Assembly (NCBI GenBank): GCA_016235885.1
Contig: JACRIH010000533.1
Coordinates: forward strand, 1 to 22,850
From: Planctomycetales bacterium
Lineage (GTDB): Bacteria > Planctomycetota > Planctomycetia > Planctomycetales > Planctomycetaceae
Reading direction: 5' to 3'
Length of the DNA: 22,850 nucleotides
A program made the translations under genes and the position numbers. The first letter of the stretch is position 1; each line of letters opens with the position of its first letter. Below are positions 1-21,355 of the stretch, in pieces. Under the pieces are notes generated by a model. That model had not been told where the DNA came from, made no database searches, and saw only the letters and a list, made by a program, of their open reading frames with translations.

Positions 1-46
1 CCTGCCTTTGAAGCAGTGAATGGAGGTTCGATTCCTTCTCCCCGAA
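1..46 (+). tRNA. tRNA-Gln (anticodon TTG), 5' end cut by the window edge
   Basis: Anticodon stem-loop ctgc-CTTTGAA-gcag with U33. T-arm GGAGG-TTCGATT-CCTTC. Acceptor 3' strand tctccccga. No encoded CCA. Confidence 0.7.
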
Positions 47-91
47 CTTGCGAACTTGCGACTGGCAGCGTGTGTCAAATGTCGCGAACAC

Positions 92-166
92 TCCGGGGCG
101 GTTGCTGCTGGTAGCAACGTCTGGCTCTGAACCAGAAGGTCGTTGGTTCGATTCCAACCCCCGGAA
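92..166 (+). tRNA. tRNA-Gln (anticodon CTG)
   Basis: Acceptor tccgggg/ccccgga is fully complementary. Anticodon arm tctgg-CTCTGAA-ccaga. T-arm GTTGG-TTCGATT-CCAAC. Length 75 nt. Confidence 0.8.
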
Positions 167-170
167 TTGA

Positions 171-243
171 AGGCAGAAGGATGAAATCGCTCGTGACCCC
201 AACCACTCGCCAAACGTTCATCCTTCATCCTTCTGCCTTTTTT
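171..243 (+). terminator. Inter-tRNA hairpin followed by a T5 run (terminator-like or processing element)
   Basis: 15-bp perfect inverted repeat aggcagaaggatgaa / ttcatccttctgcct (171-185 and 224-238) with a 38-nt loop. Followed by ttttt immediately before tRNA-Ser. Confidence 0.35.
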
Positions 244-329
244 GGAAGTCATCCGGCCGGATGAGGGACCTGTCCCGAAAACAGGTGGCGAGTTGAACTC
301 GCTTGTGGGTTCGAGTCCCACGGCTTCCG
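244..329 (+). tRNA. tRNA-Ser (anticodon CGA), class II with long variable arm
   Basis: Acceptor ggaagtc/ggcttcc. Anticodon arm cctgt-CCCGAAA-acagg. Variable-arm hairpin gcgag-ttgaa-ctcgc. T-arm GTGGG-TTCGAGT-CCCAC. Position 33 reads as C, which is atypical. Confidence 0.65.
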
Positions 330-519
330 CTGAACAAGGGCTCATGGTCCAACAGCAAGACGTCGGTCCTGCAAACCGGAGATTCGGGTGCAACTCACGG
401 TGGGTCCATTTTGAAGAGTTGAAGAGTGAAGGGCGAAGGGTGGAGGGCGAAAACAAAGTTGGGCAACCACGTCGTGGTACGCTTCGTGTTTTTCATTCTT
501 CTCACTTCACTCTTCATCC

Positions 520-591
520 GGTCCCGTGGTCCAGCGGCGACGACTTCTGGCCTACACCCAGACAACGATGGTTCGAGTCCATCCGGGATCA
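520..591 (+). tRNA. tRNA-Val (anticodon TAC)
   Basis: Acceptor ggtcccg/cgggatc (one G-U pair). Anticodon arm tctgg-CCTACAC-ccaga. T-arm GATGG-TTCGAGT-CCATC. 3-bp D-stem; C at position 33. Confidence 0.65.
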
Positions 592-599
592 TATTGATT

Positions 600-673
600 G
601 TCCTCGCGGAGCAGCTCGGAATGCTCGCCACCCTGTCACGGTGGAGACGTGGGTTCAAATCCCATCGAGGACG
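600..673 (+). tRNA. tRNA-Asp (anticodon GTC)
   Basis: Acceptor gtcctcg/cgaggac. D-stem gagc/gctc. Anticodon arm ccacc-CTGTCAC-ggtgg. T-arm GTGGG-TTCAAAT-CCCAT. Confidence 0.8.
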
Positions 674-696
674 TTTGGTGATGTGATATGTGATTC

Positions 697-778
697 GCGT
701 CGGCTGGGCATCGGCGTGCCCAAGTGGCCGTAACCCACCCGCCTTCGGGCAATGCAGGTTCGACTCCTGCTCGACGCA
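697..778 (+). tRNA. tRNA-Tyr (anticodon GTA), long variable arm
   Basis: Acceptor gcgtcgg/tcgacgc. D-stem gggc/gccc. Anticodon loop CCGTAAC. Variable arm gcc-ttcg-ggc. T-arm GCAGG-TTCGACT-CCTGC. Confidence 0.65.
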
Positions 779-785
779 TTGTTTC

Positions 786-858
786 GGCCCGTTCGTCTAT
801 TGGTACAGGACGCCAGCTTCTCACGCTGGCAAGGCGAGTTCGATTCTCGCACGGGTCA
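786..858 (+). tRNA. tRNA-Glu (anticodon CTC)
   Basis: Acceptor ggcccgt/acgggtc. D-arm gtctattggtacaggac resembles canonical tRNA-Glu. Anticodon arm ccagc-TTCTCAC-gctgg. T-arm GGCGAG-TTCGATT-CTCGC. Confidence 0.8.
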
Positions 859-938
859 TCTACGAGTATTTGTGTAGCCCCTGCCCTCGTGGCCGGCACA
901 AGGCCGGCGGCTACGACGGCCAGATTGATGGAAGATTC

Positions 939-1021
939 GACCGAGTGGTGAAATTGGTAGACACGCGACGCTCAGAACGTCGAGCCGTCAAGGCATGGGA
1001 GTTCGAGTCTCCCCTTGGTCA
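939..1021 (+). tRNA. tRNA-Leu (anticodon CAG), class II
   Basis: Acceptor gaccgag/cttggtc. D-arm tggtgaaattggtagacac is typical of tRNA-Leu. Anticodon arm cgacg-CTCAGAA-cgtcg. Variable-arm stem gcc/ggc. T-arm GGGAG-TTCGAGT-CTCCC. Confidence 0.85.
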
Positions 1022-1106
1022 TCGTTATCGACGCAGGTGAGCCAGTGCTCAGCCGAGGCTCATAACCTCAGCCCGCCGGGTGCGACCCCCGGACCTGCCA
1101 CTTGCC

Positions 1107-1176
1107 GTAGGTCAGGCTTTCCAGCCTGACTCGTTGGGCTGTCAACACACAGGTCAGGCTGGAAAGCCTGACCTAC
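1107..1176. repeat. Nested-palindrome (BIME-like) element between tRNA-Leu and tRNA-Ser
   Basis: 24-bp arms gtaggtcaggctttccagcctgac / gtcaggctggaaagcctgacctac are exact reverse complements with a 22-nt spacer. Each arm also contains its own 8-bp palindrome gtcaggct..agcctgac. Confidence 0.6.
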
Positions 1177-1190
1177 GACAAGATCCTCTC

Positions 1191-1276
1191 GGAAGGTAGC
1201 CGGATACGGTTGGCCGGGCCGCACTGCTAACGCGGCTCTCGTCACTGAGATGAGGGTTCGAATCCCTTGCCTTCCG
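1191..1276 (+). tRNA. tRNA-Ser (anticodon GCT), class II
   Basis: Acceptor ggaaggt/gccttcc (one G-U). D-stem ccgg/ccgg. Anticodon loop CTGCTAA. Variable-arm stem tctc/gaga. T-arm GAGGG-TTCGAAT-CCCTT. Confidence 0.75.
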
Positions 1277-1380
1277 CTGAATGTTTGTTTCGTGACATGG
1301 TGTTCGTGGTGTACCGGTGTGCATGCGACTCTGTGAAAGTCGAGGCGGTGGGTTCAACTCCCCTCGAACACCCTGCTGTG

Positions 1381-1490
1381 AATGATGAATTTCGAATGAC
1401 GAATGACGAACCGGCACCGATGCCGTTCGAGCATTCGACATTCGTCATTCTTTCGTCATTCGGATTTCGTCCTTCGTCATTCCCCCACAG
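1381..1490. repeat. Inverted blocks of tandem decamers GAATGACGAA ... TTCGTCATTC (copy 1)
   Basis: Left block gaatgacgaatgacgaa; right block ttcgtcattctttcgtcattc...ttcgtcattc, in opposed orientation. Lies immediately upstream of the HNH gene start. Confidence 0.7.
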
Positions 1491-1497
1491 GTGCATC

Positions 1498-2091
1498 ATG
1501 TCGGCGGTTCTTACTCGACCAACGCTCGTGCTCAACCGGAACTGGCAACCGGTGGGTGTGGCCTCGGTGTCGCGCTCGCTGATCCTGTTGTGGAACGACA
1601 ACGCGCGCGTGGTCGATCCGGCGGACTTCCGGCTGTACACGTGGAGCGATTGGTCGCGAATGATTCCGCTCGCGGATGAACCGTTCATCCAGGCGGTTCG
1701 GTCGCGGCTGCGGGTGCCGGAAGTGATTTCGCTGACGAACTTCGACCGCGTTCCGATGAACGGGGTGACGTTCAGCCGGCGGAACATTTATCGGCGTGAC
1801 CGTTACACGTGTCAGTACTGCGGTTCGCAGCCGGGGAGCGAAGAACTGACGATCGATCACGTCCTGCCGCGGGCGCAGGGGGGAACTTCGATGTGGGAGA
1901 ACTGTGTTCTCGCATGCGTCGCTTGCAACAAGCGCAAGGCCGACCGCACGCCCGAACAGGCGCACATGCCGCTGCACAAGCGGCCGGTTCGTCCCTCATG
2001 GAAGCCGCACTACGCCACGCGCGGAGTCCGGATCGACAGTTGGTCCCGCTTCCTCAGTGAAGCGTATTGGAATGTGGAACTGAATGCGTAG
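1498..2091 (+). CDS. HNH endonuclease (COG1403 / McrA-like), 197 aa
   Basis: Translation starts MSAVLTRPTLVLNRNWQPV, the N-terminal motif typical of this family. C-terminal motif CQYCGS...LTIDHVLPRAQGG...WENCVLACVACNKRK has the C-X2-C...DH...N...C-X2-C arrangement. AGGTG lies 7 nt upstream of the ATG. The long ORF in the track begins inside the repeat/tRNA region and was trimmed. Confidence 0.85.
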   Translation: MSAVLTRPTLVLNRNWQPVGVASVSRSLILLWNDNARVVDPADFRLYTWSDWSRMIPLADEPFIQAVRSRLRVPEVISLTNFDRVPMNGVTFSRRNIYRRDRYTCQYCGSQPGSEELTIDHVLPRAQGGTSMWENCVLACVACNKRKADRTPEQAHMPLHKRPVRPSWKPHYATRGVRIDSWSRFLSEAYWNVELNA

Positions 2092-2109
2092 CGGAAAGCT
2101 TTCAGCAAT

Positions 2110-2171
2110 CAGCGGTCAGCGATCAGCCAATCGGTTGAGGCTGACTGTTGAAAGCTGATCGCTGACCGCTG
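2110..2171 (+). terminator. Long hairpin downstream of the HNH gene
   Basis: 18-bp perfect inverted repeat cagcggtcagcgatcagc / gctgatcgctgaccgctg around a 26-nt loop. There is no clear U-tract, so function as a terminator is uncertain. Confidence 0.35.
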
Positions 2172-2175
2172 CCAC

Positions 2176-2245
2176 ACGAGTGTGCTCCTGGGAGAGCCAG
2201 TGGTCTCCAAAGCCGCTTCATGAGGTTCGAATCCTCACACTCGTG
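2176..2245 (+). other. Degenerate tRNA-like element (possible tRNA pseudogene or integration-site remnant)
   Basis: Perfect acceptor pairing acgagtg/cactcgt and canonical T-arm TGAGG-TTCGAAT-CCTCA. No canonical anticodon arm can be folded, and the element is only 70 nt long. Confidence 0.4.
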
Positions 2246-2248
2246 CTG

Positions 2249-2296
2249 TTGGAGTCCCGGCTTCAGCCGGTCTGCCGCCTGAAGGCGGGACTCCAA
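2249..2296 (+). other. Compact three-way-junction structure following the tRNA-like element
   Basis: Outer stem ttggagtc/gactccaa encloses two hairpins, ccggc-ttca-gccgg and ccgcc-tgaa-ggcgg. Confidence 0.35.
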
Positions 2297-2299
2297 CCT

Positions 2300-2373
2300 G
2301 CCGACGTGGCTCGACTGAGAAAGGCATCTGTCCCGTAAACAGACTCATGCTGGTGCGAATCCAGTCGTCGGCT
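2300..2373 (+). tRNA. tRNA-Thr-like (anticodon CGT), non-canonical D-arm
   Basis: Perfect acceptor gccgacg/cgtcggc. Anticodon arm tctgt-CCCGTAA-acaga. T-arm GCTGG-TGCGAAT-CCAGT (G at position 54). D-arm cannot be folded canonically and position 33 is C. Confidence 0.5.
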
Positions 2374-2394
2374 CTTGGTTCAAAGTTTGTTTTG

Positions 2395-2512
2395 GGAGTG
2401 CTCCGGCTTGACGGAGCTTTGGAATTTTTTGCGAAGCACTTTCGCCATCCTATAGAAACGGAAAGAAAGTCGCTCCGCGACAATTCCAAAGCTCCGTCAA
2501 GCCGGAGCACTC
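2395..2512. repeat. MITE-like palindromic element with 32-bp perfect terminal inverted repeats
   Basis: ggagtgctccggcttgacggagctttggaatt (2395-2426) is the exact reverse complement of 2481-2512. Interior carries hairpins gcgaa..ttcgc and GTCGCTCCGCGAC. This element generates the mirror-image ORFs 2347..2598 (+) and 2235..2672 (-). Confidence 0.75.
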
Positions 2513-2518
2513 CAAAGT

Positions 2519-2589
2519 TGCCCTGCGGGTGTGCCGGAAGCATGACAGACTTCGAATCTGTCGGACGAGGTTCGATTCCTCGGTGGGGT
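2519..2589 (+). tRNA. tRNA-Arg-like (anticodon TCG), weak acceptor stem
   Basis: Anticodon arm acaga-CTTCGAA-tctgt. T-arm CGAGG-TTCGATT-CCTCG. Acceptor gccctgc/gtggggt needs three G-U pairs and the D-arm is poor. Followed by tttttt. Confidence 0.45.
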
Positions 2590-2599
2590 GTTTTTTGAA

Positions 2600-2670
2600 C
2601 GTCCTCGGAGTGTGGTGGATGCATGCGACCGTGCGAAGGTCGAAGATCAGGTTCGACTCCTGACGGGGAC
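2600..2670 (+). tRNA. tRNA-Arg-like (anticodon reads GCG, unusual)
   Basis: Acceptor gtcctcg/cggggac. Anticodon arm cgacc-GTGCGAA-ggtcg. T-arm TCAGG-TTCGACT-CCTGA. D-arm has G-U pairs; anticodon GCG is not a standard bacterial Arg isoacceptor. Confidence 0.45.
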
Positions 2671-2719
2671 ATCCGTGTTCGATCCGTGTTTCATCCGTGG
2701 CAAAAAAACAATTCCTCCC

Positions 2720-2791
2720 GACGCTGTTGCCGGATGGTCCGGCCACTGTCTGCAAAGCAGTTCTTCGTGGGTTCGATTCCCACCGGCGTCT
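2720..2791 (+). tRNA. tRNA-Cys (anticodon GCA)
   Basis: Acceptor gacgctg/cggcgtc. D-stem gccg/cggc. Anticodon arm actgt-CTGCAAA-gcagt. T-arm GTGGG-TTCGATT-CCCAC. Confidence 0.8.
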
Positions 2792-2801
2792 TCAAGGAAA
2801 A

Positions 2802-2842
2802 GTAGGGTGGGACCAGCTCGCGAAGCGAGTGCAGGCCCACCA
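2802..2842. repeat. REP-like unit GTAGGGTGGGAC..GAAGCG..GGCCCACCA (single copy)
   Basis: Same motif order as the palindromic dimer at 8206-8290. Contains a ctcgc-gaa-gcgag hairpin. Confidence 0.55.
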
Positions 2843-2992
2843 TTGCCGAGATGATGATTCGTCATGACCAGACACGAGCAATTTCAAGCAAGGTTGACGC
2901 AGCCGGGCCAGCGGCGCATCAAGACCTGTCCTGTTCGCAGGCGGTTGTCCGAATGTGTTCCGCGAGTGGGTTCTAACGAAGGCTGTGTCGGC

Positions 2993-3065
2993 GAGTGGTT
3001 AGCTCAGTGGGTAGAGCACCAGACCGTGAATCTGGCTGTCACAGGTTCGACTCCTGTACCAACTG
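2993..3065 (+). tRNA. tRNA-His-like (anticodon GTG), imperfect acceptor stem
   Basis: Perfect D-arm agctcagtgggtagagc. Anticodon arm ccaga-CCGTGAA-tctgg. T-arm ACAGG-TTCGACT-CCTGT. The acceptor strands gagtggt/accaact have two adjacent mismatches. Confidence 0.5.
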
Positions 3066-3480
3066 CGGTGTGAAAAACCGCTCCAAAACGCGAAAGCGTT
3101 TACCAACCGGCCCGACGGTGGCGGGCGAATGATTGATCTGCGGATGCTTCGTTGATGTGCTCTCGTAATTGAGTGCTGCTCGACGTCGGCCGAAAGGCTG
3201 GCGGATGAGTCAGCGGATTGCGGGCCGTGCATCGCGAACATCGGCAACGTGACGGTTTGCTTTGCAGGGCGTGGATTCAGCCATCGCAAATTTCGGACAG
3301 ACGGTCGTGGATGCTGGTCGGACGCTCGCGTGACATTTGTCCGCGAGCGACAAAACCAGACGAAGCGACCGAACCTCCGCAGCTCGCGATGGCTCAAACG
3401 TCTCTCCGCATCCCGGCGCGGGATTAACAATCGTTTCGCCACCTGACGGCAATTCAACTTCCTCTCCACAGCGGGGGAGA

Positions 3481-3660
3481 GGACGGGAGTGGGGAATGAC
3501 GAATTCCGAATGACGAATGACGAATGAATGACAAAGCTCGAATGACGAACACGAGCCTTCACTTCGAGTTCACTGCCTGAATGCGTCACCGGCGAATTCG
3601 GCATTCGGCATTCGTCATTCGGAATTCATTCGTCATTCGTGCTTCCGCCATTCGTCATTC
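3481..3660. repeat. Inverted blocks of tandem decamers GAATGACGAA ... TTCGTCATTC (copy 2)
   Basis: Left block has four or more gaatgacgaa-like units; right block has cattcgtcattcg units in opposite orientation. Upstream of the SPFH gene. Creates the HSSFVI-repeat artefact in the minus-strand ORF 2999..3604. Confidence 0.7.
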
Positions 3661-3671
3661 CACACCGCCCC

Positions 3672-3707
3672 TCACCCCCGACCCCTCTCCCCCAAAGGGG
3701 AGAGGGG
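3672..3707. repeat. REP-like hairpin CCCTCACCCCCGACCCCTCTCCCCC-aaa-GGGGAGAGGGG (copy 1)
   Basis: Stem cccctctcccc / ggggagagggg. A near-identical copy lies at 19474-19509. Its 3' arm, ggagaggggagaag, sits directly before the SPFH ATG and acts as a Shine-Dalgarno sequence. Confidence 0.65.
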
Positions 3708-3712
3708 AGAAG

Positions 3713-4840
3713 ATGAAACGAAAGGACGCTCTCATGTACCCGATCAATGTCATCAAGGTCCGCGACTACGAAATGGGACTCCGGTTCCGAGACGGAGAAT
3801 TCCGCGGACTGTTCGCGCCGGGCCGGCACTGGCTGTTCGACCCGCTCCGCAAGGTGCGCGTGGCTGTCGTGTCGCAGCGCGATCCGTGGCTGGTTCACGA
3901 GAAGCTCGACCTGATCGTCAAGTCGGGTGCGCTGCGCGACCGCGCGGTCGTGCTCGATCTGAAGGATCATCAGCGGGCGCTGATCTGGATCGACGGTCGA
4001 TTCAGCCACGTGCTGCCGCCTGGTCTGTACGCGTACTGGAACTCGCTGCGCGACGTGTCGGTCGAAGTGATCGATGCGCGCGACGTTCGATTCCAGCACA
4101 AGGATCTGTCGGTGATCGCGCGGTCGCCGCTGGTGGATCGAGTTCTCGAATTCATCACGGTCGAAGCGGGTCACGCCGGCGTGCTGCTCCGGGATGGCGA
4201 CTTCGTGGAAACGCTGCCGCCAGGCCGGTACGCGTTTTGGAAGAACGTCGCGCAGAGCAAGCTGATCCCGGTGGATCAGCGCGAAGCGATGCTCGATGTG
4301 GCCGGTCAGGAAATCATGACGTCGGACAAGGTCACGCTGCGCCTCAACGCCATCGTGACGTTCCGTGTTGTCGATCCGCGCCGCGCCGTCAGCATTGTGG
4401 ATGACGCCCGTCAGGCACTGTACCGCGAGGCACAGCTCGCCCTGCGAGCCGTCATCGGCACGCGCGAACTCGACCTGTTCCTGACCGACAAGGACTCCGT
4501 CGCGAAGGACTTGGAAGAGATCGTCCGGCGTCGCGTGTCGGCGTTTGGTCTGGAAGTCGTTTCGATCGGTATCCGCGACGTGATCCTGCCGGGCGACATG
4601 AAGGATCTGATGAACAAGGTGACGGAAGCCAAGAAGGCAGCCGAAGCAAACCTGATCGCCCGTCGTGAGGAAACGGCGGCGATGCGCAGTCAGGCCAACA
4701 CGGCCAAGCTGCTGGAAGGCAACCCAATGCTAATGCGGCTGCGCGAACTGGAAGTTCTCGAAAAGGTCGCGGCATCGTCCAAGCTCAACGTCGTGCTGGG
4801 CGAAAAGGGGTTGGCCGATCGGATTGTCAACCTGTTGTGA
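3713..4840 (+). CDS. SPFH / band-7 (stomatin-prohibitin-like) domain protein with three N-terminal repeats, 375 aa
   Basis: C-terminal half (IVTFRVVDPRRAVSIVDDARQALYREAQLALRAVIGTRELD...) has the SPFH pattern. N-terminal half has three repeats of about 45 aa, each containing LPPGxYAxW. Start chosen at ATG 3713 after the GGAGAGGGGAG sequence; the longer track ORF begins inside the repeat array. Confidence 0.85.
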   Translation: MKRKDALMYPINVIKVRDYEMGLRFRDGEFRGLFAPGRHWLFDPLRKVRVAVVSQRDPWLVHEKLDLIVKSGALRDRAVVLDLKDHQRALIWIDGRFSHVLPPGLYAYWNSLRDVSVEVIDARDVRFQHKDLSVIARSPLVDRVLEFITVEAGHAGVLLRDGDFVETLPPGRYAFWKNVAQSKLIPVDQREAMLDVAGQEIMTSDKVTLRLNAIVTFRVVDPRRAVSIVDDARQALYREAQLALRAVIGTRELDLFLTDKDSVAKDLEEIVRRRVSAFGLEVVSIGIRDVILPGDMKDLMNKVTEAKKAAEANLIARREETAAMRSQANTAKLLEGNPMLMRLRELEVLEKVAASSKLNVVLGEKGLADRIVNLL

Positions 4841-4852
4841 TTTGTGAAACGA

Positions 4853-4888
4853 ACCCGGAGGCTGAGCAATCGGCCTCCGGGTTTTTCT
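4853..4888 (+). terminator. Rho-independent terminator of the SPFH gene
   Basis: Stem acccggaggc / gcctccgggt followed by TTTTTCT, 13 nt after the stop codon. Confidence 0.75.
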
Positions 4889-4897
4889 GTCGTGCAT

Positions 4898-4995
4898 GCG
4901 GCTACGTAGCCATCACGCTCCGCGTGATGAGCCGAATGGCCAATCGACGTCGCATCCCGATTCGGCTCGTCACGCGGAGCGTGACGGCTACGTTA
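4898..4995. repeat. Nested-palindrome element with CGCTCCGCG core (family copy A)
   Basis: Left arm ggctacgtagcc-ATCACGCTCCGCGTGAT-gagccgaat. Right arm attcggctc-GTCACGCGGAGCGTGAC-ggctacgt. The arms are imperfect reverse complements and each arm is itself palindromic. Confidence 0.65.
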
Positions 4996-5001
4996 AGTCC
5001 G

Positions 5002-5550
5002 TCAATTCCCGCTGAACATCTGTAGTTCCTCATCCTTCATTGGATGCAGGCGGTGGACTTCGATGATCTTCCAGTCGGCCCCCTCCCGCTGCCACTTGAG
5101 TTCCCATCGCGACGGTTGATGCCCGGCGTTTGTCTGCTGGTACGAAACGGTCCCGTTGGCTCGGAACCGAGTCTTCGCGAGCGTTTCGCCGGCGAGCAGC
5201 GTCACCTGCACATCTTTTTTTTGGAGGAGGTTCAGGTTTTTGACGTTCTCGAGAGCGGCGTCTTTGGACATTTTCAGCAAGACCTCGCGCGCGGAGAAAA
5301 AGCTCAGCGTTCGATCGCGATCCGTGCGCTGAAACGCGGCGGTCAGGTCGCGGATGTTCTGTTCCAGTTGCTCGGCAGTCGTGACCACGAAGTGATCGAC
5401 GACAAACGCTGTCAGGGCCAGCGTGATGGCGGCGACGGCTCCGATCAGCAGACCTTTTCTCCGCTGCTGGTTCCAAACGACGAACAAGCCGACCGCTGCG
5501 ATCAGGCACGGAACGATGAGCGGCCACGGGTTTTCGGTGATCAGTCCCAT
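5002..5550 (-). CDS. Hypothetical membrane-anchored protein (two N-terminal TM helices, NTF2/SnoaL-like C-terminal fold guessed)
   Basis: ORF MGLITENPWPLIVPCLIAAVGLFVVW...LLIGAVAAITLALTAFVV..., then a soluble domain ending WKIIEVHRLH. ATG at 5548-5550; the track ORF starts 3 nt earlier at a TTG. No confident family assignment. Confidence 0.65.
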   Translation of the reverse strand: MGLITENPWPLIVPCLIAAVGLFVVWNQQRRKGLLIGAVAAITLALTAFVVDHFVVTTAEQLEQNIRDLTAAFQRTDRDRTLSFFSAREVLLKMSKDAALENVKNLNLLQKKDVQVTLLAGETLAKTRFRANGTVSYQQTNAGHQPSRWELKWQREGADWKIIEVHRLHPMKDEELQMFSGN

Positions 5551-8297: not shown

Positions 8298-10658
8298 ATG
8301 ATGGACCCACAAACCTACCAATCCACCGGCGAAATGCTGCGAAACCTGCTGACGCTGGCATGGTTGCTACCGCTGGCCGGCTTCGTCCTCGAAGTTTTCG
8401 CTGGCTATTGGAGCCATCGGCTCAGCCGGGCGGCGGCGTATTCCGCCGTGTTCTGTATCGCGGCCGGATTCGTGTGTAGTTTCGCGGCGCTGATGTACTG
8501 GGGCCACCAGACACACTGGTCGGCCTTGGAATCACACGCATCGCCGGCGGACCATCACGACGTGCTGAAGTATTTTTCCGGGACGTATTACACGCTGGCC
8601 GAATTCGGCAAGCTGCGGATTGCCATCGACTACCACATCGACAGCCTGACGCTGGTGATGTTCACGATGGTGACGCTGATCGCGACGATGATTCATATTT
8701 TCGCCATCGGCTACATGTCGGACGAATTGACGGAGCATTACGAAGATCATCAGGTCCACACGGCCCACGGACACTTCCACCGGCCCGGGCGGTTCTACAT
8801 GTTCTTTGCGTACCTGTCCCTGTTCAGCTTCTCGATGCTGGGGCTGGTGCTGGCCGGAAATGTGTTCCAGGTGTTCGTGTTCTGGGAACTGGTCGGCGTT
8901 TGCAGCTATTTCCTGATCGGGTTCTACTTCGAACGCAAGTCGGCTTCGACGGCCGCGAACAAGGCGTTCATCATGAACCGCGTCGGGGATTTCGGGTTCC
9001 TCATCGGCCTGATGATCCTGTGGACGTGGTTCGGGACGTTCCAGTTCAACGAACGAGTCGAATCCGATGCCAACGGCAGAGATGTGGTCATGCCTGGGCT
9101 GTTCGACATGCTGCGAGACGATCACGGAAACGTCACAGTCCTGCCCGCCAACGATCACGATTCCTACGCGCGAGTGTTCCTCGCCGATCCGGGACATTCC
9201 GGCGCGCTGAAGCACGAGGGACACAAGGAAGGGAAGACGATGCCGTACTTCCTGCTGGTCGTGGCCGGGCTGGGAATCTTCGCGGGCTGTGTCGGCAAGA
9301 GCGCTCAGTTCCCGCTGCAAACGTGGTTGCCCGACGCGATGGAAGGCCCGACCCCCGTGTCGGCTCTGGTCCACTCGGCGACGATGGTGGCCGCCGGCGT
9401 GTATCTTGCCGGTCGGTTTTACCCGATGTTCCTCCCCGAAGTGCTGCTGACGATCGCGTACGTTGGCTGCATCACGTTGTTCATGGCGGCGACCATTGCG
9501 GTCGTCGCAACGGACATCAAGCGCGTGCTCGCCTATTCGACGATCAGCCAGCTCGGTTACATGATGCTCGGCATTGGCGTGGGAGGATGGACGGCGGGGC
9601 TGTTCCATCTCATCACGCACGCGTTCTTTAAGTCACTCATGTTCCTCTGCTCTGGCAGCGTGATTCATGGGTGCCATCACGAGCAGGAAATGCCCAAAAT
9701 GGGCGGCCTGATTCGCAAGATGCCGATTACCGCGTACACGATGCTCGTCGGAGTGATCGCGATTTGCGGACTGGCGATTCCCGGCATCTCGATCTTCGGC
9801 ATCAAGATTGCGTTCTCTGGCTACCACTCGAAGGACGCAATCATTGCCACGGCGATGACGTTCTCGCAGCTCAACGGTTCGCACTTCCTGTTGTTTGTCG
9901 TGCCACTCTTGGGCGCTGGTATCACCGCGTTCTACATGTTTCGGTTGTGGTTCTACACGTTCATCGGCCAACCGCGTGACCATCATGTGTACGACCACGC
10001 TCATGAATCTCCGGTGGTGATGTGGGCACCGCTGATTGTCCTCTCATTCTTTGCCGCGTTCGTCGCGTTCAAGGGAGAAGCCGGCAGCCTGTTCAAACTG
10101 CTGCTCGACACCGAACCGGCCAGCGTGGCACACGGGCTTCACGATGTAGGCTTGGCGGGAGATCTCAATTTCCCCAGCCACGTCGGTATCGAAGAGAACC
10201 ACAAGGCGGCCGGGTTGTACGCCCTGCTGGTGGCTGTCATGGGGACGACGCTCGCGTATCTGTTTTACGGAGCCCGCGTCCTGAATCCCGCCGAAGTGAA
10301 ACGCCAATTCGCGGGGGTCCACAACTTCCTCGTTGAAAAATGGCAGTTCGACATTCTGTACGATGCCGCCTTCGTCCGGCCGGTGCATGTCATCGCCAAA
10401 TGGTTTGTCGCGTTTGACCGCAACGTGCTGGATGGCTTCCTCCACGCGACGGCCCGCACCGCGGTCAGCATTGCGACGCTCGATCGGCGGTTCGACGAAA
10501 CGGTCGTCGATGGCCTCGTGAACTTGGTCGGGAATGTCACCTACGACGCGGGTCGGTCTCTGCGATACGTGCAGACCGGCCGGTTGCGGCAATACGTCAT
10601 GTTCATTGTGTTGGGTGTGGTGGGGATTTGGATTGTGATGCGGCTTTTCGCCGCTTAG
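8298..10658 (+). CDS. nuoL: NADH-quinone oxidoreductase subunit L (NuoL/ND5), unusually long (786 aa)
   Basis: Antiporter-like NuoL motifs (WLPDAMEGPTPVSALVHSATMVAAGVYL, HAFFKSLMFLCSGSVIHG). An inserted hydrophilic segment lies around residues 255-310. Confidence 0.9.
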   Translation: MMDPQTYQSTGEMLRNLLTLAWLLPLAGFVLEVFAGYWSHRLSRAAAYSAVFCIAAGFVCSFAALMYWGHQTHWSALESHASPADHHDVLKYFSGTYYTLAEFGKLRIAIDYHIDSLTLVMFTMVTLIATMIHIFAIGYMSDELTEHYEDHQVHTAHGHFHRPGRFYMFFAYLSLFSFSMLGLVLAGNVFQVFVFWELVGVCSYFLIGFYFERKSASTAANKAFIMNRVGDFGFLIGLMILWTWFGTFQFNERVESDANGRDVVMPGLFDMLRDDHGNVTVLPANDHDSYARVFLADPGHSGALKHEGHKEGKTMPYFLLVVAGLGIFAGCVGKSAQFPLQTWLPDAMEGPTPVSALVHSATMVAAGVYLAGRFYPMFLPEVLLTIAYVGCITLFMAATIAVVATDIKRVLAYSTISQLGYMMLGIGVGGWTAGLFHLITHAFFKSLMFLCSGSVIHGCHHEQEMPKMGGLIRKMPITAYTMLVGVIAICGLAIPGISIFGIKIAFSGYHSKDAIIATAMTFSQLNGSHFLLFVVPLLGAGITAFYMFRLWFYTFIGQPRDHHVYDHAHESPVVMWAPLIVLSFFAAFVAFKGEAGSLFKLLLDTEPASVAHGLHDVGLAGDLNFPSHVGIEENHKAAGLYALLVAVMGTTLAYLFYGARVLNPAEVKRQFAGVHNFLVEKWQFDILYDAAFVRPVHVIAKWFVAFDRNVLDGFLHATARTAVSIATLDRRFDETVVDGLVNLVGNVTYDAGRSLRYVQTGRLRQYVMFIVLGVVGIWIVMRLFAA

Positions 10659-10667
10659 CAGTTCGTC

Positions 10668-10775
10668 GCCCTGTCGCTCCGCGACAGGAAAGCCGAATGC
10701 ATTTGAGTCATTGTTGTTGAAGACACATTCTGAGTCGTCTGGAAACTTGGCTGTCCTGTCGCGGAGCGGCAGGGC
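10668..10775. repeat. Nested-palindrome element with CGCTCCGCG core (family copy B), between nuoL and nuoM
   Basis: Arms gccCTGTCGCTCCGCGACAGg / cCTGTCGCGGAGCGGCAGggc with one mismatch. Each arm is palindromic. The gccgaatg and ggctac segments are shared with copy A. Confidence 0.65.
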
Positions 10776-10808
10776 TACTTTTCGGATTTTAAGGTAAGAC
10801 CTGTCATC

Positions 10809-12398
10809 ATGAGTAATGAATTCCTACTGAGTGCGATCATCTTCCTGCCCACGGTTGGTGCATTGGTCCTGTCGATCATGGACGGTGGAGCCGAAAAAGC
10901 CCTGCGCAAGATCGGCTATTTCACGACTGCGGCGACGTTCGCGCTGACCCTGGTCCTGCTGGCCGAATTCGATTCGAGCGTCTCCGGAATGCAGATGGAA
11001 GTGAAAGCCGAGTGGATCAAGAACTGGAATGTTAACTACCAGCTTGGGGTGGACGGGATCAGCCTGACGCTCGTGCTGTTGACCGGGCTGGTCTGTTTTC
11101 TGGCCATGCTGGCATCGGATAGCATCAAAAAGGATATCAAGGGTTACCTGATCCTGTTCCTGCTGCTGGAAACCGGGATGCTCGGAGTATTCCTCTCGCT
11201 CGACTTCTTCCTGTTCTACGTGTTCTGGGAAGTGATGCTCCTGCCGATGTACTTCCTGATCGGCATCTGGGGCGGCCCGCGCCGTGAATACGCGGCGATG
11301 AAGTTCTTCCTGTACACGCTCGTCGGCAGCGTGCTGATGCTGATCGCCCTGTTGATGTTCTACTTCGGCAGCGCGACAACGACGAGCCCCGGTTCGTTTG
11401 ACCTGCTGCACCTGGCGAGAATTGGTCAGGGAAAAGTTCCGGGCTTGGTGTTCAGCGAAACTCTGCAGATGACCGCTTTCGTGTTGCTGTTCATTGGGTT
11501 CGCGATCAAGGTGCCGGTGGTTCCGTTCCACACATGGTTGCCCGATGCCCACGTCGAAGCGCCCACTCCGATCAGCATGATTCTGGCGGGAGTCCTGCTG
11601 AAGATGGGCGGCTACGGCATCCTCCGTATCGCGTTCCCCATTTGCCCGCAGGGTGCTCAATGGGCGTCGTATGTCCTGGTTTTCCTGGGTGTCCTCAGCA
11701 TTATTTATGGCGCGTTCGCCGCGATGGCTCAGACGGACTTCAAGCGACTGGTGGCCTACAGTTCGGTGAGTCACATGGGTTACGTGTTGCTCGGGATCGC
11801 TGTGTGGAAACTCTCCGAGGGGAAGACGGTGGGCGCCGAGTACTGGAAGATGGGAATGAACGGTGCCATGTTCCAGATGCTGGCTCACGGCATTTCGTCG
11901 GCTGGCATGTTCTTTATGGTGGGGGTGATCTATGACCGGGTCCACCACCGCGACGTGAACAAGTTCGGTGGCCTGATGGGACTGATGCCGCTGTACGGTG
12001 GCCTCGCCGTCGGAATCTTCTTCGCGGGGCTGGGCCTGCCGGGTCTGTGCGGATTCATTGGCGAAGTGTTCACCGTGCTCAGTGCTTGGAACTACCACCC
12101 GATCATGGCAATCATCTCGGCGTCTGGGGTGATCCTCACCGCCGGTTACATCCTGTGGACCATCCAGCGCGTGTTCCTCGGCCCCGAATACAAAGGACCG
12201 CACCCCGAAGCCATCACGCCGATTCTGCCGCGCGAAGCGTTCATTGGATTCGTGCTGCTCGGATTTGCGATCCTGTTGGGTGTGTATCCCGAATCGATGT
12301 TCGGTCTGATGCGAGAGTCGATCAATCAGTTGGTGAACGACCTTGTCAAAGTGGACATGTCATCCCTCGCCGGAGTCAACACGCTGCTGAAACGATAG
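10809..12398 (+). CDS. nuoM: NADH-quinone oxidoreductase subunit M (NuoM/ND4)
   Basis: FFLFYVFWEVMLLPMYFLIGIWGG and HTWLPDAHVEAPTPISMILAGVLLKMGGYGILR are NuoM signatures. AAGGTAAGA lies upstream of the ATG. Confidence 0.9.
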   Translation: MSNEFLLSAIIFLPTVGALVLSIMDGGAEKALRKIGYFTTAATFALTLVLLAEFDSSVSGMQMEVKAEWIKNWNVNYQLGVDGISLTLVLLTGLVCFLAMLASDSIKKDIKGYLILFLLLETGMLGVFLSLDFFLFYVFWEVMLLPMYFLIGIWGGPRREYAAMKFFLYTLVGSVLMLIALLMFYFGSATTTSPGSFDLLHLARIGQGKVPGLVFSETLQMTAFVLLFIGFAIKVPVVPFHTWLPDAHVEAPTPISMILAGVLLKMGGYGILRIAFPICPQGAQWASYVLVFLGVLSIIYGAFAAMAQTDFKRLVAYSSVSHMGYVLLGIAVWKLSEGKTVGAEYWKMGMNGAMFQMLAHGISSAGMFFMVGVIYDRVHHRDVNKFGGLMGLMPLYGGLAVGIFFAGLGLPGLCGFIGEVFTVLSAWNYHPIMAIISASGVILTAGYILWTIQRVFLGPEYKGPHPEAITPILPREAFIGFVLLGFAILLGVYPESMFGLMRESINQLVNDLVKVDMSSLAGVNTLLKR

Positions 12399-12503
12399 AG
12401 TTGACAGTTTGCCGAACTCGCCAGAGTTCGGAAGCTGTTGTGTTTTCTGAATTCTGGCGAATTCAGCTACGTTCGCTGTCGAAGTGGAACAAAGAACCGG
12501 ACC

Positions 12504-14252
12504 ATGCCGTTTTCCTCCCTGGTTGATTCCCTGATGCAAGACACGCTTGGCGTGTCGTTGCCATTGTTCGCGACGGAATTGGCGATCTGCGCCACGATCG
12601 TGTTGCTGCTGCTGTTCCGATTGTTGAATCTGGACCAGCGAATCCCCGGTGCCGTTCTGGCACTGGCGGGCAGTATTGCCGGGTTGGGTCTGGCGGTGAT
12701 GCAGCATCTGCAATACAGCCAGGAAGCGGATCTTGTCGGTCAGTCGGTCGAAATCTTCACCGGCTTGTTGATCTACGATCAGTTTACGATTTACCTCCGC
12801 ATCTTTCTGATGCTGTTCCTGGTGCTGGTCGTGTACCTGACCATGCTCGGTGGCATTCCCGACCGCGAGGACGCTCCCGATTTCTACGTGCTGCTGCTCG
12901 GTTCAACACTGGGCATGTTGCTGATGGCCAGCGCGAATCACCTGCTGATCGTGTTCCTCGCCATTGAAATGACCAGCGTGCCGAGTTACGCGATGGTCGG
13001 GTTCCTCAAGGGGCGGCGGCAAAGCAGCGAAGCGGCGCTCAAATACGTGGTGTACGGTGCCGGTGCCGCGGGCGTGATGCTGTACGGAATCAGCCTGCTG
13101 TCCGGATTGCTCGGCACGGCCAACCTGCCCGAACTGGCGCAGGCCCTCACCGCACTCGGGGGCGCGGATAGTGCGCTAGATCAGCCGTCCCTGTGGACGC
13201 TGTCGCTGGCCATTTTGATGGTCCTCGTAGGCGTGGCGTTCAAATTGTCGATCGTCCCGTTCCATTTCTGGTGTCCGGACGCTTTCGAAGGCGCGTCGGC
13301 CGAAGTCGCGGGTTATCTCTCGGTTGCCTCCAAGGGTGCAGCGTTCGCGCTGTTGGTAAGATTTTGTCTCGCCATGACTGGTTCGGCGGTCCCTGCTGGT
13401 GATTTGCAGACCGTGTTCGTCCATCTGGGTTTCGGCATCGGGATCATCGCGGCCATTTCAGCGACGTTCGGCAACCTCGCCGCGTACACGCAGACCAACA
13501 TCAAACGGATGCTGGCGTATTCGACCATCGCGCACGCCGGCTACATGCTGATGGCGGTCGCCGCACTGTTGGTCATCCTCGGTTCGCCCGACGCTCCGGA
13601 CGGTGGGGCCCAACGCACCGAACACGCGATCCGCGCCGTATCCGGCTTGCTGTATTACCTCGTCGTGTACCTGTTCATGAACCTTGGAGCATTCGCCATC
13701 GTGGCGATCATCCGCAACCAGACATTCAGCGAACAGATTGAAGACTACTCCGGATTGGTGCGGCAGTCGCCGGCACTGGCCGTGTGCATGCTGGCCTGCA
13801 TGTTCAGCCTGATCGGCATGCCGCCACTCGGCGGGTTCGTCAGCAAGGTGATGGTCTTCGCATCGGTCTTCAAATCCACAGAGTATTACTGGCCGATGTG
13901 GTTCATCCTGTCCGCCGGCGTTCTGAACACCGTGTTCAGCCTGATCTACTACGTGAACGTGCTCAACTACATGTTCTTCAAGCCGCCCCGCGAGCATCTC
14001 GAACCGGTCAACGTTCCATTGGCGAGCGCCTACGGTCGTTATGCCCTCCTCGTAACCCTGCCGGTGTTCCTGCTGGGTGTGATGGTGAACCGGATTGACG
14101 ACGTCGCCTACAGCGCGTCGGCCAGTCTCAAATCGTTTTCCGTTCCAGTCGTCGCCAACCACGACAATGCTGACCCACCCCGGCAGTCGGTCCGTTCGAC
14201 TCCGGCGATCCCCGCCCCCGTCGAAGCTGCCACCCCGGTGTCCGGCGGGTGA
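12504..14252 (+). CDS. nuoN: NADH-quinone oxidoreductase subunit N (NuoN/ND2) with a Pro/Ala-rich C-terminal tail
   Basis: Antiporter-like membrane protein (IEMTSVPSYAMVGFLKG, FHFWCPDAFEGASAEVAGYLSVASKGAAF). Start set at ATG 12504 (MPFSSLV...). Last roughly 90 aa are low-complexity. Confidence 0.85.
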   Translation: MPFSSLVDSLMQDTLGVSLPLFATELAICATIVLLLLFRLLNLDQRIPGAVLALAGSIAGLGLAVMQHLQYSQEADLVGQSVEIFTGLLIYDQFTIYLRIFLMLFLVLVVYLTMLGGIPDREDAPDFYVLLLGSTLGMLLMASANHLLIVFLAIEMTSVPSYAMVGFLKGRRQSSEAALKYVVYGAGAAGVMLYGISLLSGLLGTANLPELAQALTALGGADSALDQPSLWTLSLAILMVLVGVAFKLSIVPFHFWCPDAFEGASAEVAGYLSVASKGAAFALLVRFCLAMTGSAVPAGDLQTVFVHLGFGIGIIAAISATFGNLAAYTQTNIKRMLAYSTIAHAGYMLMAVAALLVILGSPDAPDGGAQRTEHAIRAVSGLLYYLVVYLFMNLGAFAIVAIIRNQTFSEQIEDYSGLVRQSPALAVCMLACMFSLIGMPPLGGFVSKVMVFASVFKSTEYYWPMWFILSAGVLNTVFSLIYYVNVLNYMFFKPPREHLEPVNVPLASAYGRYALLVTLPVFLLGVMVNRIDDVAYSASASLKSFSVPVVANHDNADPPRQSVRSTPAIPAPVEAATPVSGG

Positions 14253-21138: not shown

Positions 21139-21144
21139 ACTGTT

Positions 21145-21355
21145 GCCCCAACGGGGCGCAATTCGATAGCCCAGGGCGCAGCCCTGGGTTGGCAGTTGCA
21201 TCCATCACACGAGCCCCAATGGGGCGCAATATTGGGGATTCCCATATCCTCGACTGCGTCCTCACGCGAATTTCGCCCCGTTGGGGCTATCGCACCAATG
21301 ACCGCCGTTACCCAGGGCTGCGCCCTGGGCTATCGAATCGCGCCCCTTCGGGACT
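21145..21355. repeat. BIME-like cluster of GC-rich hairpins between the DUF1553 and DUF1501 genes
   Basis: 25-bp perfect inverted repeat gatagcccagggcgcagccctgggt (21165-21189) / acccagggctgcgccctgggctatc (21310-21334). Four small hairpins GCCCC-NNN-GGGGC lie in alternating orientation. Confidence 0.7.

Follow-up and report, generated by a model that had tools for sequence, protein, structure and literature searches.

Do four consecutive transfer RNA (tRNA)-like elements that gene finders score as marginal represent decaying gene copies, or are they tRNA genes of an unusual but maintained build? The question is raised by positions 2176-2671 of a 22.85-kb stretch of planctomycete DNA (contig JACRIH010000533.1, positions 1 to 22,850 of the forward strand), which is henceforth referred to as the window. 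A first reading of the letters alone, the sequence-only reading, had described a run of degenerate tRNAs here and had proposed decaying pseudo-tRNAs, structurally atypical tRNAs of the kind known from mobile arrays or, for the first element, the remnant of an attachment (att) site. Based on the comparisons reported below, we consider it probable that the four elements are intact, selected tRNA genes of a conserved tRNA array linked to an HNH nuclease gene, and that this array provides a supplementary pool of isodecoders with a putative role in translation.

Folding and model scores of the four elements

All four elements lie where the sequence-only reading had placed them, and ARAGORN calls them Trp-CCA, Thr-CGT, Arg-TCG and Arg-GCG. 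The Rfam tRNA model (RF00005, gathering threshold 29 bits) was run on positions 2160-2690 alone. Arg-GCG (40.6 bits), Thr (38.8 bits) and Trp (30.1 bits, with the D arm unaligned) pass the threshold, and Arg-UCG, at 27.4 bits in a local alignment without the acceptor stem, falls just under it. When the whole window was scanned with default filters, Thr was the only one of the four to be reported.

Every helix position in the window copies of all four elements is a standard pair. Single-sequence minimum-energy folds of Trp and Thr are nevertheless not cloverleaves, with weak z-scores of -0.8 to -2.6, and this probably accounts for the result of the earlier folding by hand. Since single-sequence thermodynamic folding proved uninformative, comparative evidence was relied on instead. 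The outcome that the sequence-only reading had named as refuting it, covariance-model cloverleaves with U33, is obtained for Trp and both Arg elements but not for Thr, which keeps its C33.

Covariation across orthologues

For each element, the distinct orthologues were aligned and the pairs of the cloverleaf were counted, using 500 column shuffles and 3' partners slid by 1-3 columns as controls. The source genomes are diverged, their array HNH proteins being 67-80% identical. The proportion of paired cells is 95.7% in Trp (33 distinct sequences), 99.8% in Thr (27), 99.4% in Arg-UCG (17) and 99.4% in Arg-GCG (31), with 14, 6, 10 and 11 pairs, respectively, changed on both sides. For every element, the observed covariation score and paired percentage were reached by none of the 500 shuffles, and pairing falls to 18-52% in the slid registers. 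The D stem of Trp may serve as an illustration: three of its four pairs show double changes, and pair 10:23 occurs as GC (19 sequences), CG (7), UG (6) or UA (1).

Identity nucleotides, assigned according to the E. coli sets for Trp, Thr and Arg, are retained as well. In Trp, A1-U72 is present in 31 of 33 sequences, G73 is nearly invariant and the anticodon CCA is kept; A1-U72, G73 and CCA are features expected of bacterial tRNA-Trp. Thr keeps G1-C72 (26/27), C2-G71 (27/27), G35 and U36. Both Arg elements have an invariant A after the D-loop GG (A20), C35, and A or G at position 73.

The compensated pairs, combined with standard pairing in the window copies, point to purifying selection on structure, unlike what pseudogenes display. 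The four elements are, as judged from these alignments, maintained by selection for the cloverleaf and not pseudogenes; the four predicted RNAs are shown by comparison to have been selected to fold as tRNAs, keeping their anticodons and identity nucleotides, in an HNH-linked long array. The proposal of decaying pseudo-tRNAs is hard to reconcile with 95.7-99.8% pairing and 6-14 compensatory pairs per element in diverged genomes. That of structurally atypical tRNAs of the mobile-array kind agrees with the position of the elements within an HNH-associated long tRNA array (PMC4758250, PMC4807772, PMC5966550, PMC8421152).

Structural peculiarities of each element

The first element had been described as lacking an anticodon arm. 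This does not hold: in the ARAGORN fold as well as in that of the covariance model, the loop CUCCAAA is closed by the stem GUGGU/GCCGC, and the arm shows compensatory changes in orthologues. The window copy has A1-U72, G73, the loop CUCCAAA, a 4-bp D stem, a 6-nt D loop (CUGGGA) and a short variable region. In the Trp family as a whole the D loop is 6 nt (CYGGGA), the variable region measures 3-4 nt and position 31:39 is often C·A. The linker between acceptor and D stem is a single nucleotide in 31 of 33 sequences and is followed by 2 nt before the anticodon stem, so that the D arm is shifted by one.

The D arm of Thr, previously taken to be broken, consists of a conserved 3-bp stem and an 11-nt loop without GG, the loop type covarying with a G55 T loop; that description was overstated. 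The window copy has C32 C33, the T loop UGCGAAU (G55), and retains G1-C72 and C2-G71. A UGCRA (G55) T loop is found in 24 of 27 sequences, in which the D loop has CAG, GAG or UAG in place of GG, and the three members with U55 (in our numbered loci L028, L063 and L066) all have the D-loop GG. The same relation extends over all array tRNAs: with a regex-based T-loop locator, U55 goes with D-loop GG in 930 of 939 cases, and 40 G55 tRNAs (Thr, Ala-UGC/CGC and Met) are without GG, save for cases in which the test picked up a GG of the D-stem strand. We read the combination of G55 and a GG-less D loop as covariation of the 18:55 tertiary contact, suggesting an elbow that was re-engineered and not broken.

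The weak acceptor stem of Arg-UCG noted earlier is confirmed, with three G·U pairs in the 7-bp stem, and the non-standard anticodon GCG of the second Arg element is real, being present in about 30 orthologues. Both Arg elements have G8 and a GUGU/GCAY D stem; in their D loops GG always precedes an A, and the variable loop is 4 nt long. The window copy of Arg-UCG has the D loop GCCGGAA and U33; that of Arg-GCG has G32 U33, and its first T-stem pair has changed from C-G to U-A, a compensated, lineage-specific change. For Arg-UCG, ARAGORN itself proposes a 4-bp T stem, an 8-position acceptor stem and the D stem GUGC/GCAU. We rejected this fold, since column 15 is variable and column 23, with which it should pair, never changes. 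With a 7-bp acceptor stem, a GUGU/GCAY D stem and a T stem of 5 bp, which is the canonical register, 99.4% of cells are paired.

Taken together, the sequence-only reading was partly borne out. The elements, the C33 loops, the GCG anticodon and the weak Arg-UCG acceptor stem stand; the missing anticodon arm and the broken Thr D arm do not. All four elements depart from the near-invariant tRNA core (U8, G18G19, U33, U54-U55-C56), Thr by C33, G55 and the lack of GG, both Arg by G8 and Trp by having one connector nucleotide fewer, and these deviations are conserved in orthologues. In other respects they resemble canonical elongator tRNAs (RF00005): the cloverleaf is 7/3-4/5/5, the anticodon loop has 7 nt, position 37 is a purine, and all but one have the T loop UUCGA. 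They also differ in the Arg GCG/UCG anticodon set, which takes the place of ACG.

A conserved array around an HNH gene

The array is interrupted by a gene encoding an HNH protein of 197 residues. ARAGORN was run on 82 loci with a gene for an HNH homologue, 80 of them from genomes and 2 from metagenomes. In about 50 of these 82 loci, 15-40 same-strand tRNA genes occur in conserved order, with the HNH gene at the same position in about 50 arrays. The order before the HNH gene is …Phe Glu Pro Ile Lys Ile Lys Thr Gly Pro Asn Ser Gly Gln Gln Ser Ala Val Leu Leu Asp Leu Tyr Glu Leu Met Leu Val Thr Ala Ala Ser Arg (Ser) (Arg) His, and the order after it is Trp Thr (Arg-CCU/CCG) Arg-UCG Arg-GCG Cys. 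The Trp element directly follows the HNH gene in about 40 loci. The four elements are the standard gene set downstream of HNH in this array. Because synteny and sequence are conserved in about 50 loci, the seemingly degenerate features cannot be put down to chance; the oddities are, on this comparison, best described as fixed traits of the array lineage and not as decay.

Orthologous arrays are carried by genome bins of Planctomycetaceae, Pirellulales and Thermoguttaceae, and the genes flanking the array vary from locus to locus. The varying flanks, together with the tree and the viral contig described below, may point to horizontal spread, yet an order retained throughout the phylum is also what long vertical descent would leave. 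About 29 loci have the HNH gene and no tRNAs, among them L006, L008, L012, L019-L024, L026, L027, L031-L033, L035, L040, L043, L047 and L049, with homologues that are 68-76% identical. A neighbour-joining tree does not separate HNH genes that have an array from those that lack one, the two being intermingled, and some genome bins hold both kinds (for example CAZVJA01, with L008 and L010). On two contigs, array members have canonical counterparts. L017 carries an array Arg-CCG of 49.7 bits and a canonical Arg-CCG of 71.7 bits located 5 kb away on the other strand; L077 carries an array Leu-CAA of 75 nt (3322-3396) and a canonical Leu-CAA of 84 nt (9648-9731). The array set is consequently redundant with housekeeping genes on those two related contigs.

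Searches with the HNH protein returned 5014 homologues at E ≤ 1e-10 in Planctomycetota genomes and metagenomes, with 71-95% identity among the 120 matches listed; an exact look-up of the protein in an assembly index gave no entry. Such conservation, 68-76% even in array-free copies, is unusual for a homing endonuclease. A tblastn comparison with the HNH endonuclease located immediately upstream of the 24-tRNA array on the delta plasmid of Nostoc PCC 7120, which we take to be all8564, gave 34% identity over 84% of the length. The protein also matches an HNH protein inside the 29-tRNA array of Mycolicibacterium plasmid pCBMA213_1 and HNH genes of many tRNA-rich phages. Only the HNH domain was matched in a sequence search of the Protein Data Bank, and NCBIfam and PADLOC gave domain-level matches only, including PtuB models. 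An AlphaFold model built with 20 close homologues was poor outside the HNH core, with a mean predicted local distance difference test score of 60 and values of 24-62 for the N-terminal domain.

On a predicted viral contig, L086 (IMGVR_UViG_3300049594_000559, positions 1075-5482 and 8566-13057), genes for a tape measure (PHROG E = 9e-46) and for a collagen-like tail fibre stand immediately upstream of a 32-tRNA array of the same order with its HNH gene; the array may be phage-borne, or a prophage may have integrated beside it. A search of viral contigs with a pattern derived from the Trp D arm yielded mostly unrelated matches without tRNAs. On L087 (IMGVR_UViG_3300011269_000166), positions 5-943 hold an otherwise typical His-Trp-Thr-Arg-Arg-Arg-Cys segment in which the HNH gene is missing and the His-Trp gap is ~160 nt.

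In some array tRNAs of other loci (L042 6717-6808 and 7014-7105, L070 6717-6810, L002 654-747), GC-rich palindromic insertions of ~20 nt (…CCACGCUGCGCGGUG…) are found. They sit in the anticodon loop or the variable region, and ARAGORN mislabels such genes as Gly-ACC or Phe-GAA.

Anticodon loops and anticodons of the array

The sequence-only reading had reported C33 in five loops of the window, and this was confirmed for Ser-CGA (CCCGAAA), Val (CCUACAC), Tyr (CCGUAAC), Thr (CCCGUAA) and the element called His at 2993-3066 (CCGUGAA). ARAGORN folds support all five, and covariance-model alignment supports Ser, Val, Thr and 2993, with Tyr resting on ARAGORN. The His tRNA at 1300-1373 has U33, the C33 "His" being the element at 2993-3066. 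Ala-UGC at 338-408, with the loop CCUGCAA, is a sixth case in the window.

Among the planctomycete arrays, C33 is found in 160 of 964 distinct tRNAs and is isoacceptor-specific across clades. It occurs in 25 of 28 distinct genes for Leu-GAG, 20/24 for Glu-CUC, 11/18 for Thr-CGU, 11/24 for Val-GAC and 10/22 for Val-UAC, and in none of those for Asp, Cys, Trp, Lys, Ile, Leu-CAA and Leu-CAG. Within the Val-UAC family, members with C33 and members with U33 alike keep the cloverleaf and show compensatory changes. The loop of Leu-GAG, UCGAGAG, is conserved and could form a U32·G38 pair. Three canonical tRNAs located outside arrays on array contigs score 60-72 bits and have U33. In the array of Mycolicibacterium sp. 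CBMA 213 plasmid pCBMA213_1 (L084), 4 of 29 tRNAs have C33 (Thr-UGU, Thr-GGU, Val-UAC and one Met), and none of the 24 in the Nostoc PCC 7120 delta plasmid array (L083) does. Thr and Val carry C33 in both phyla, that is, in planctomycete and actinobacterial arrays.

As for the Arg anticodons of the array, GCG is found in ~30 loci, UCG in ~20 and CCG in ~19, with ACG in three loci only. GCG is thus part of a consistent G34/U34/C34 Arg design. A set of this kind would not depend on A34-to-inosine editing.

The Leu members differ in length. Most array genes for Leu-CAA, Leu-GAG, Leu-UAA and Leu-UAG measure 73-77 nt and have no long variable arm, and the long arm is kept in most array Leu-CAG (median 84 nt) and in canonical Leu-CAA (84 nt).

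Proposed function of the array and alternative explanations

If the four elements are functional tRNA genes, as we think probable, the same-strand array would be transcribed as a polycistron and the transcript cut by RNase P and 3' nucleases. CCA is encoded neither in the array tRNAs nor in canonical planctomycete tRNAs nearby, and we infer from this that it would be added enzymatically. The array would supply a second, near-complete isodecoder set beside the canonical housekeeping tRNAs, probably used when the normal tRNA pool, the ribosome or translation is compromised, by analogy with the Anabaena array. More speculatively, the altered anticodon loops plausibly make some of these tRNAs poor substrates for anticodon nucleases, as was proposed for phage tRNAs (PMC10264068).

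Several observations weigh against this interpretation. Covariance-model scores of the four elements are low, at 27-41 bits compared to 60-72 in canonical tRNAs nearby. Collecting orthologues with ARAGORN favours foldable sequences, which inflates the paired percentages, though not the compensatory changes. Elongator tRNAs nearly always carry U33, with eukaryotic initiators and a Candida Ser tRNA as the known exceptions (PMC5041475), and given this near-invariance the C33 members may decode poorly. Promoter and terminator consensus scans of the array part in the window gave results no better than shuffled sequence. In the Ala-UGC gene of the window, a C-to-A change produces a T-stem G·A mismatch that is absent from five orthologues, and this may perhaps be the one array member truly degenerating in this genome. 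Together with the palindromic insertions in array tRNAs elsewhere, the mismatch indicates that individual array genes do decay. Finally, Kim (2016) described planctomycete "degenerate tRNA gene clusters" with low Cove scores and read them as degraded and possibly dispensable (PMC4807772 S2 Text).

Most of the probability left beyond a supplementary decoding role goes to a function outside translation, which we nevertheless regard as unlikely. The RNAs would then be made and folded, but in order to capture tRNA-targeting nucleases or toxins as decoys or sponges, to serve the HNH protein as substrate or partner, or to donate aminoacyl groups in non-ribosomal reactions. Features expected to impair decoding (C33, the U32·G38 of Leu-GAG, G55) are indeed conserved, and the terminal element at 2993-3066, which keeps its body while its loop is free to vary and its acceptor is lost, suggests that tRNA shape alone can be useful. 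Moreover, the HNH protein has domain-level PtuB matches, PtuB-type retron effectors being countered by phage tRNAs (PMC11555353), and phage tRNAs with altered anticodon loops were proposed to be nuclease-resistant (PMC10264068). On the other hand, each array position strictly keeps its anticodon and the anticodons add up to a nearly complete set for decoding, the identity nucleotides for the synthetases, of no use to decoys, are kept, and the tRNAs of the homologous Anabaena array are aminoacylated (PMC8421152).

A bolder proposal, to which we give a similarly small chance, is that the array is a self-contained, structurally recoded "shadow" decoding set that is insensitive to tRNA-targeting nucleases and has the HNH protein and the terminal element as partners in a module that replaces the tRNA pool. 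The deviations of such a set could comprise the C33, G32 and U32·G38 loops, a predicted A18-G55 elbow contact in place of G18-U55, and Arg decoding by GCG, UCG and CCG without A34 deamination. The HNH protein could, for instance, cleave tRNAs or regulate the switch, and the terminal element could be a decoy or sensor.

It is very improbable that the elements are primary housekeeping tRNAs gathered in one large operon and that planctomycete tRNAs are atypical in general. The chromosomal context beside an SPFH gene and the nuo operon, and the near-complete set in an order conserved across the phylum, would agree with such a role. However, canonical 60-72-bit tRNAs with U33 duplicate array anticodons on the same contigs (L017 Arg-CCG, L077 Leu-CAA), and the array is missing from about 29 HNH loci. 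Kim (2016) also reported separate canonical tRNAs, including a canonical Trp beside an elongation factor gene, and tabulated totals of 46 to 96 tRNAs per planctomycete genome (PMC4807772).

We consider it very improbable that the elements are decaying pseudo-tRNAs of a horizontally acquired, dispensable array, with only residual tRNA likeness. Scores of 27.4-40.6 bits, with Arg-UCG under the Rfam threshold, minimum-energy folds of Trp and Thr that are not cloverleaves and have weak z-scores, and defects in neighbouring members of the window (the T-stem mismatch of Ala-UGC and the eroded acceptor at 2993) are what such a view would lead one to expect, and Kim (2016) calls the planctomycete clusters partially degraded (PMC4807772). 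Yet pairing of 95.7-99.8% with 6-14 compensatory pairs persists among genomes so far apart that HNH identity is down to 67-80%, neither anticodons nor identity nucleotides vary, the changed T-stem pair of Arg-GCG in the window is compensated (C-G to U-A), and the atypical features are common to orthologues instead of being randomly scattered.

That the Trp element (2176-2245) is an att-site remnant, formed by duplication of a tRNA 3' half when a mobile element integrated, can practically be dismissed: its acceptor stem and T arm are near-perfect, it directly follows a nuclease gene and a hairpin, and tRNA arrays are often mobile, but it forms a full-length cloverleaf in 33 distinct orthologues, with a conserved 5' half, covarying D and anticodon stems, conserved anticodon CCA and G73 and the same place after the HNH gene in about 40 loci, and there is no integrase domain among the open reading frames near the array in the window, nor a direct repeat nearby.

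A supplementary, selected tRNA set would have several consequences. Gene finders score these genes as marginal and the literature called them degraded, whereas the comparative evidence points to an architecture preserved by selection phylum-wide. Planctomycete tRNA counts are underestimates, as array Trp and Arg-UCG usually fall below model thresholds. Few nucleotides in biology are as conserved as U33, U8, G18G19 and U55, and a tRNA set that breaks these rules in an isoacceptor-specific way offers a natural test bed for the need for each of them. The array also bears on the idea that accessory tRNA arrays serve nuclease-resistant or stress-specific decoding.

The array in the window and neighbouring features

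ARAGORN finds 15 tRNA genes in the window, all on the + strand within 92-3066, and none in the remainder of the 22.85 kb. Three members missed at its default settings, the 3' part of Gln-UUG (1-46), Ala-UGC (338-408) and a Met-CAU-like gene (~1031-1101), were recovered with Rfam and sequence comparison. The part of the array in the window (1-3066) holds at least 18 tRNA or tRNA-like genes, and the window start falls inside the array. They share the + strand and, leaving aside the HNH gene, are separated by 7-170 nt, which is close enough for co-transcription. Long tRNA arrays were defined by Tran (2016) as having at least 20 tRNA genes and at least 2 per kb (PMC4758250); here, 18 tRNA or tRNA-like genes in 3.07 kb, from an array cut by the window edge, correspond to about 6 per kb. 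All features are listed in Table 1.

Table 1. Coordinates of array members and associated features in the window.
Feature	Position	Strand	Evidence and remarks
tRNA-Gln(UUG), 3' part cut by window edge	1..46	+	Rfam model positions 26-71, 27.9 bits; resembles L003/L004 Gln-UUG orthologues
tRNA-Gln(CUG)	92..166	+	ARAGORN; Rfam 33.9 bits
tRNA-Ser(CGA), C32 C33	244..330	+	ARAGORN; covariance-model loop CCCGAAA
tRNA-Ala(UGC), C33, T loop UGCAACU (G55)	338..408	+	Rfam 38.3 bits; ARAGORN at lowered threshold only; orthologues L002/L003/L004/L010/L039
tRNA-Val(UAC), C33	520..591	+	ARAGORN and Rfam covariance model; family alignment
tRNA-Asp(GUC)	599..674	+	ARAGORN and Rfam
tRNA-Tyr(GUA), C33	697..778	+	ARAGORN; C33 in 7/26 distinct orthologues
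tRNA-Glu(CUC), U33 in window vs C33 in 20/24 orthologues	786..858	+	ARAGORN and Rfam
tRNA-Leu(CAG), long variable arm	939..1021	+	ARAGORN and Rfam
tRNA-Met(CAU)-like, T loop UGCGACC (G55)	1031..1101	+	resembles L010, L014, L060 Met-CAU; weak tRNA-like Rfam match 1034-1114; no ARAGORN call
tRNA-Ser(GCU)	1191..1277	+	ARAGORN
tRNA-His(GUG), U33; G before position 1 could be G-1	1300..1373	+	ARAGORN and Rfam
HNH nuclease gene between His and Trp	1498..2091	+	Pfam HNH/HNH_5, residues 105-158
tRNA-Trp(CCA)	2176..2246	+	ARAGORN; Rfam 30.1 bits
hairpin, 23-nt arm, inserted between Trp and Thr	2248..2297	.	hairpin search
tRNA-Thr(CGU)	2300..2374	+	ARAGORN; Rfam 38.8 bits
hairpin, 52-nt arm, at the position of Arg(CCU)/Arg(CCG) in relatives	2392..2516	.	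hairpin search and synteny
tRNA-Arg(UCG)	2520..2590	+	ARAGORN; Rfam 27.4 bits, local alignment
tRNA-Arg(GCG)	2601..2671	+	ARAGORN; Rfam 40.6 bits
tRNA-Cys(GCA)	2720..2791	+	Rfam 47.9 bits; ARAGORN
terminal tRNA-like element (ARAGORN "His-GUG", C32 C33)	2993..3066	+	Rfam 54.2 bits; acceptor stem eroded

The terminal element has orthologues in 15 loci (L001, L007, L009, L010, L014, L016, L028, L030, L039, L041, L042, L066, L068, L070 and L078). Pairing reaches 100% in its almost invariant D, anticodon and T arms, and the outer four acceptor pairs are unpaired in 10-12 of the 15 sequences. The 7-nt anticodon loop differs in almost every locus (CCGUGAA, CUGCAAA, UUAUGGA, CGUUGAA, CCGUUAA, CCGUAAA, UUUGAAC, CCAUGAA, CUAUCAA, CCAAUAA, CCGAUAA, UUUGGGA, CUGAAGA). 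As far as its sequence can tell, the element does not look like a decoding tRNA or like a simple pseudogene. A repeat of its 3' part, as an att signature, was searched for within the window sequence and none was found.

Long near-perfect hairpins with arms of 16-52 nt occur between the tRNA genes and after the array (170-239, 420-516, 1101-1182, 1380-1482, 2110-2171, 2248-2297, 2392-2516 and 3489-3665), several of them built from simple repeats, for instance GAATGACGAA. The Trp-Thr spacer measures only 2-11 nt in many other loci, among them L007, L014, L017, L030, L037 and L052, and for this reason the hairpins look like lineage-specific palindromic insertions. Rfam microRNA "hits" on the hairpins were rejected as artefacts.

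Downstream of the array lie an SPFH/Band-7 gene, nuoH-J-K-L-M-N, tatD, and DUF1501 and PSD1 (DUF1553) genes, the latter two presumably families typical of planctomycetes. The host DNA is a Planctomycetota chromosome. Two matches to the Acido-Lenti-1 RNA motif, at 21144-21188 (-) and 21311-21355 (+), score 39.7 and 40.7 bits (threshold 37) and lie in inverted orientation between the DUF1501 and PSD1 genes.

Comparison with known systems

Long tRNA arrays have been described in several phyla, Planctomycetes included (PMC4758250; PMC8421152). In mycobacterial arrays, HNH genes are the most widespread protein genes (PMC5966550), and in Anabaena the HNH gene all8564 lies upstream of the trn operon and is co-induced under translational stress, 23 of the 26 tRNAs of that array being charged in vivo (PMC8421152). 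The planctomycete array resembles the trn operon of Nostoc/Anabaena PCC 7120 and the arrays of mycobacterial plasmids and phages. Dozens of tRNA genes follow one another on one strand at ~6 per kb, tRNA model scores are low, nearly all isoacceptors are represented, and an HNH gene of the same family is linked. Duplication of housekeeping tRNAs, seen for the planctomycete array on two related contigs, and an apparently patchy presence among relatives are further points of likeness. Gene order in the Nostoc and Mycolicibacterium arrays, however, is unrelated to the planctomycete one. Moreover, the planctomycete HNH gene occupies a fixed internal site (His-HNH-Trp) rather than lying upstream as in Nostoc, and, unlike in Nostoc and mycobacteria, it is unusually conserved and has array-free copies in the same genomes.

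Closest in taxonomy are the clusters of Kim (2016), which come from the same phylum, contain up to 28 low-Cove tRNA genes including Ile-UAU, and coexist with a canonical Trp elsewhere (PMC4807772). They are very probably the same entity as the array described here. Kim (2016) described them as partly degraded, rapidly evolving and of poor synteny, whereas here gene order and sequences hold across genome bins, changes are compensated and a conserved HNH gene is embedded.

Phage tRNA clusters offer a further parallel, with supernumerary tRNAs, anticodon loops unlike those of the host and interspersed HNH genes (PMC10264068; PMC11555353). Anticodon-loop changes in phage tRNAs were proposed to evade anticodon nucleases (van den Berg 2023, PMC10264068), and PtuB-type effectors of retron systems are countered by phage tRNAs (Azam 2024, PMC11555353). 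The window array differs in being chromosomal, and nuclease resistance is hypothetical in its case.

The class to which this array belongs, a long tRNA array with an HNH gene, has already been published, including the planctomycete "degenerate clusters". Relative to the papers cited here, two aspects appear to be new: the conservation of the seemingly degenerate features, which are compensated and isoacceptor-specific across the phylum, and the fixed internal position of the HNH gene in the array.

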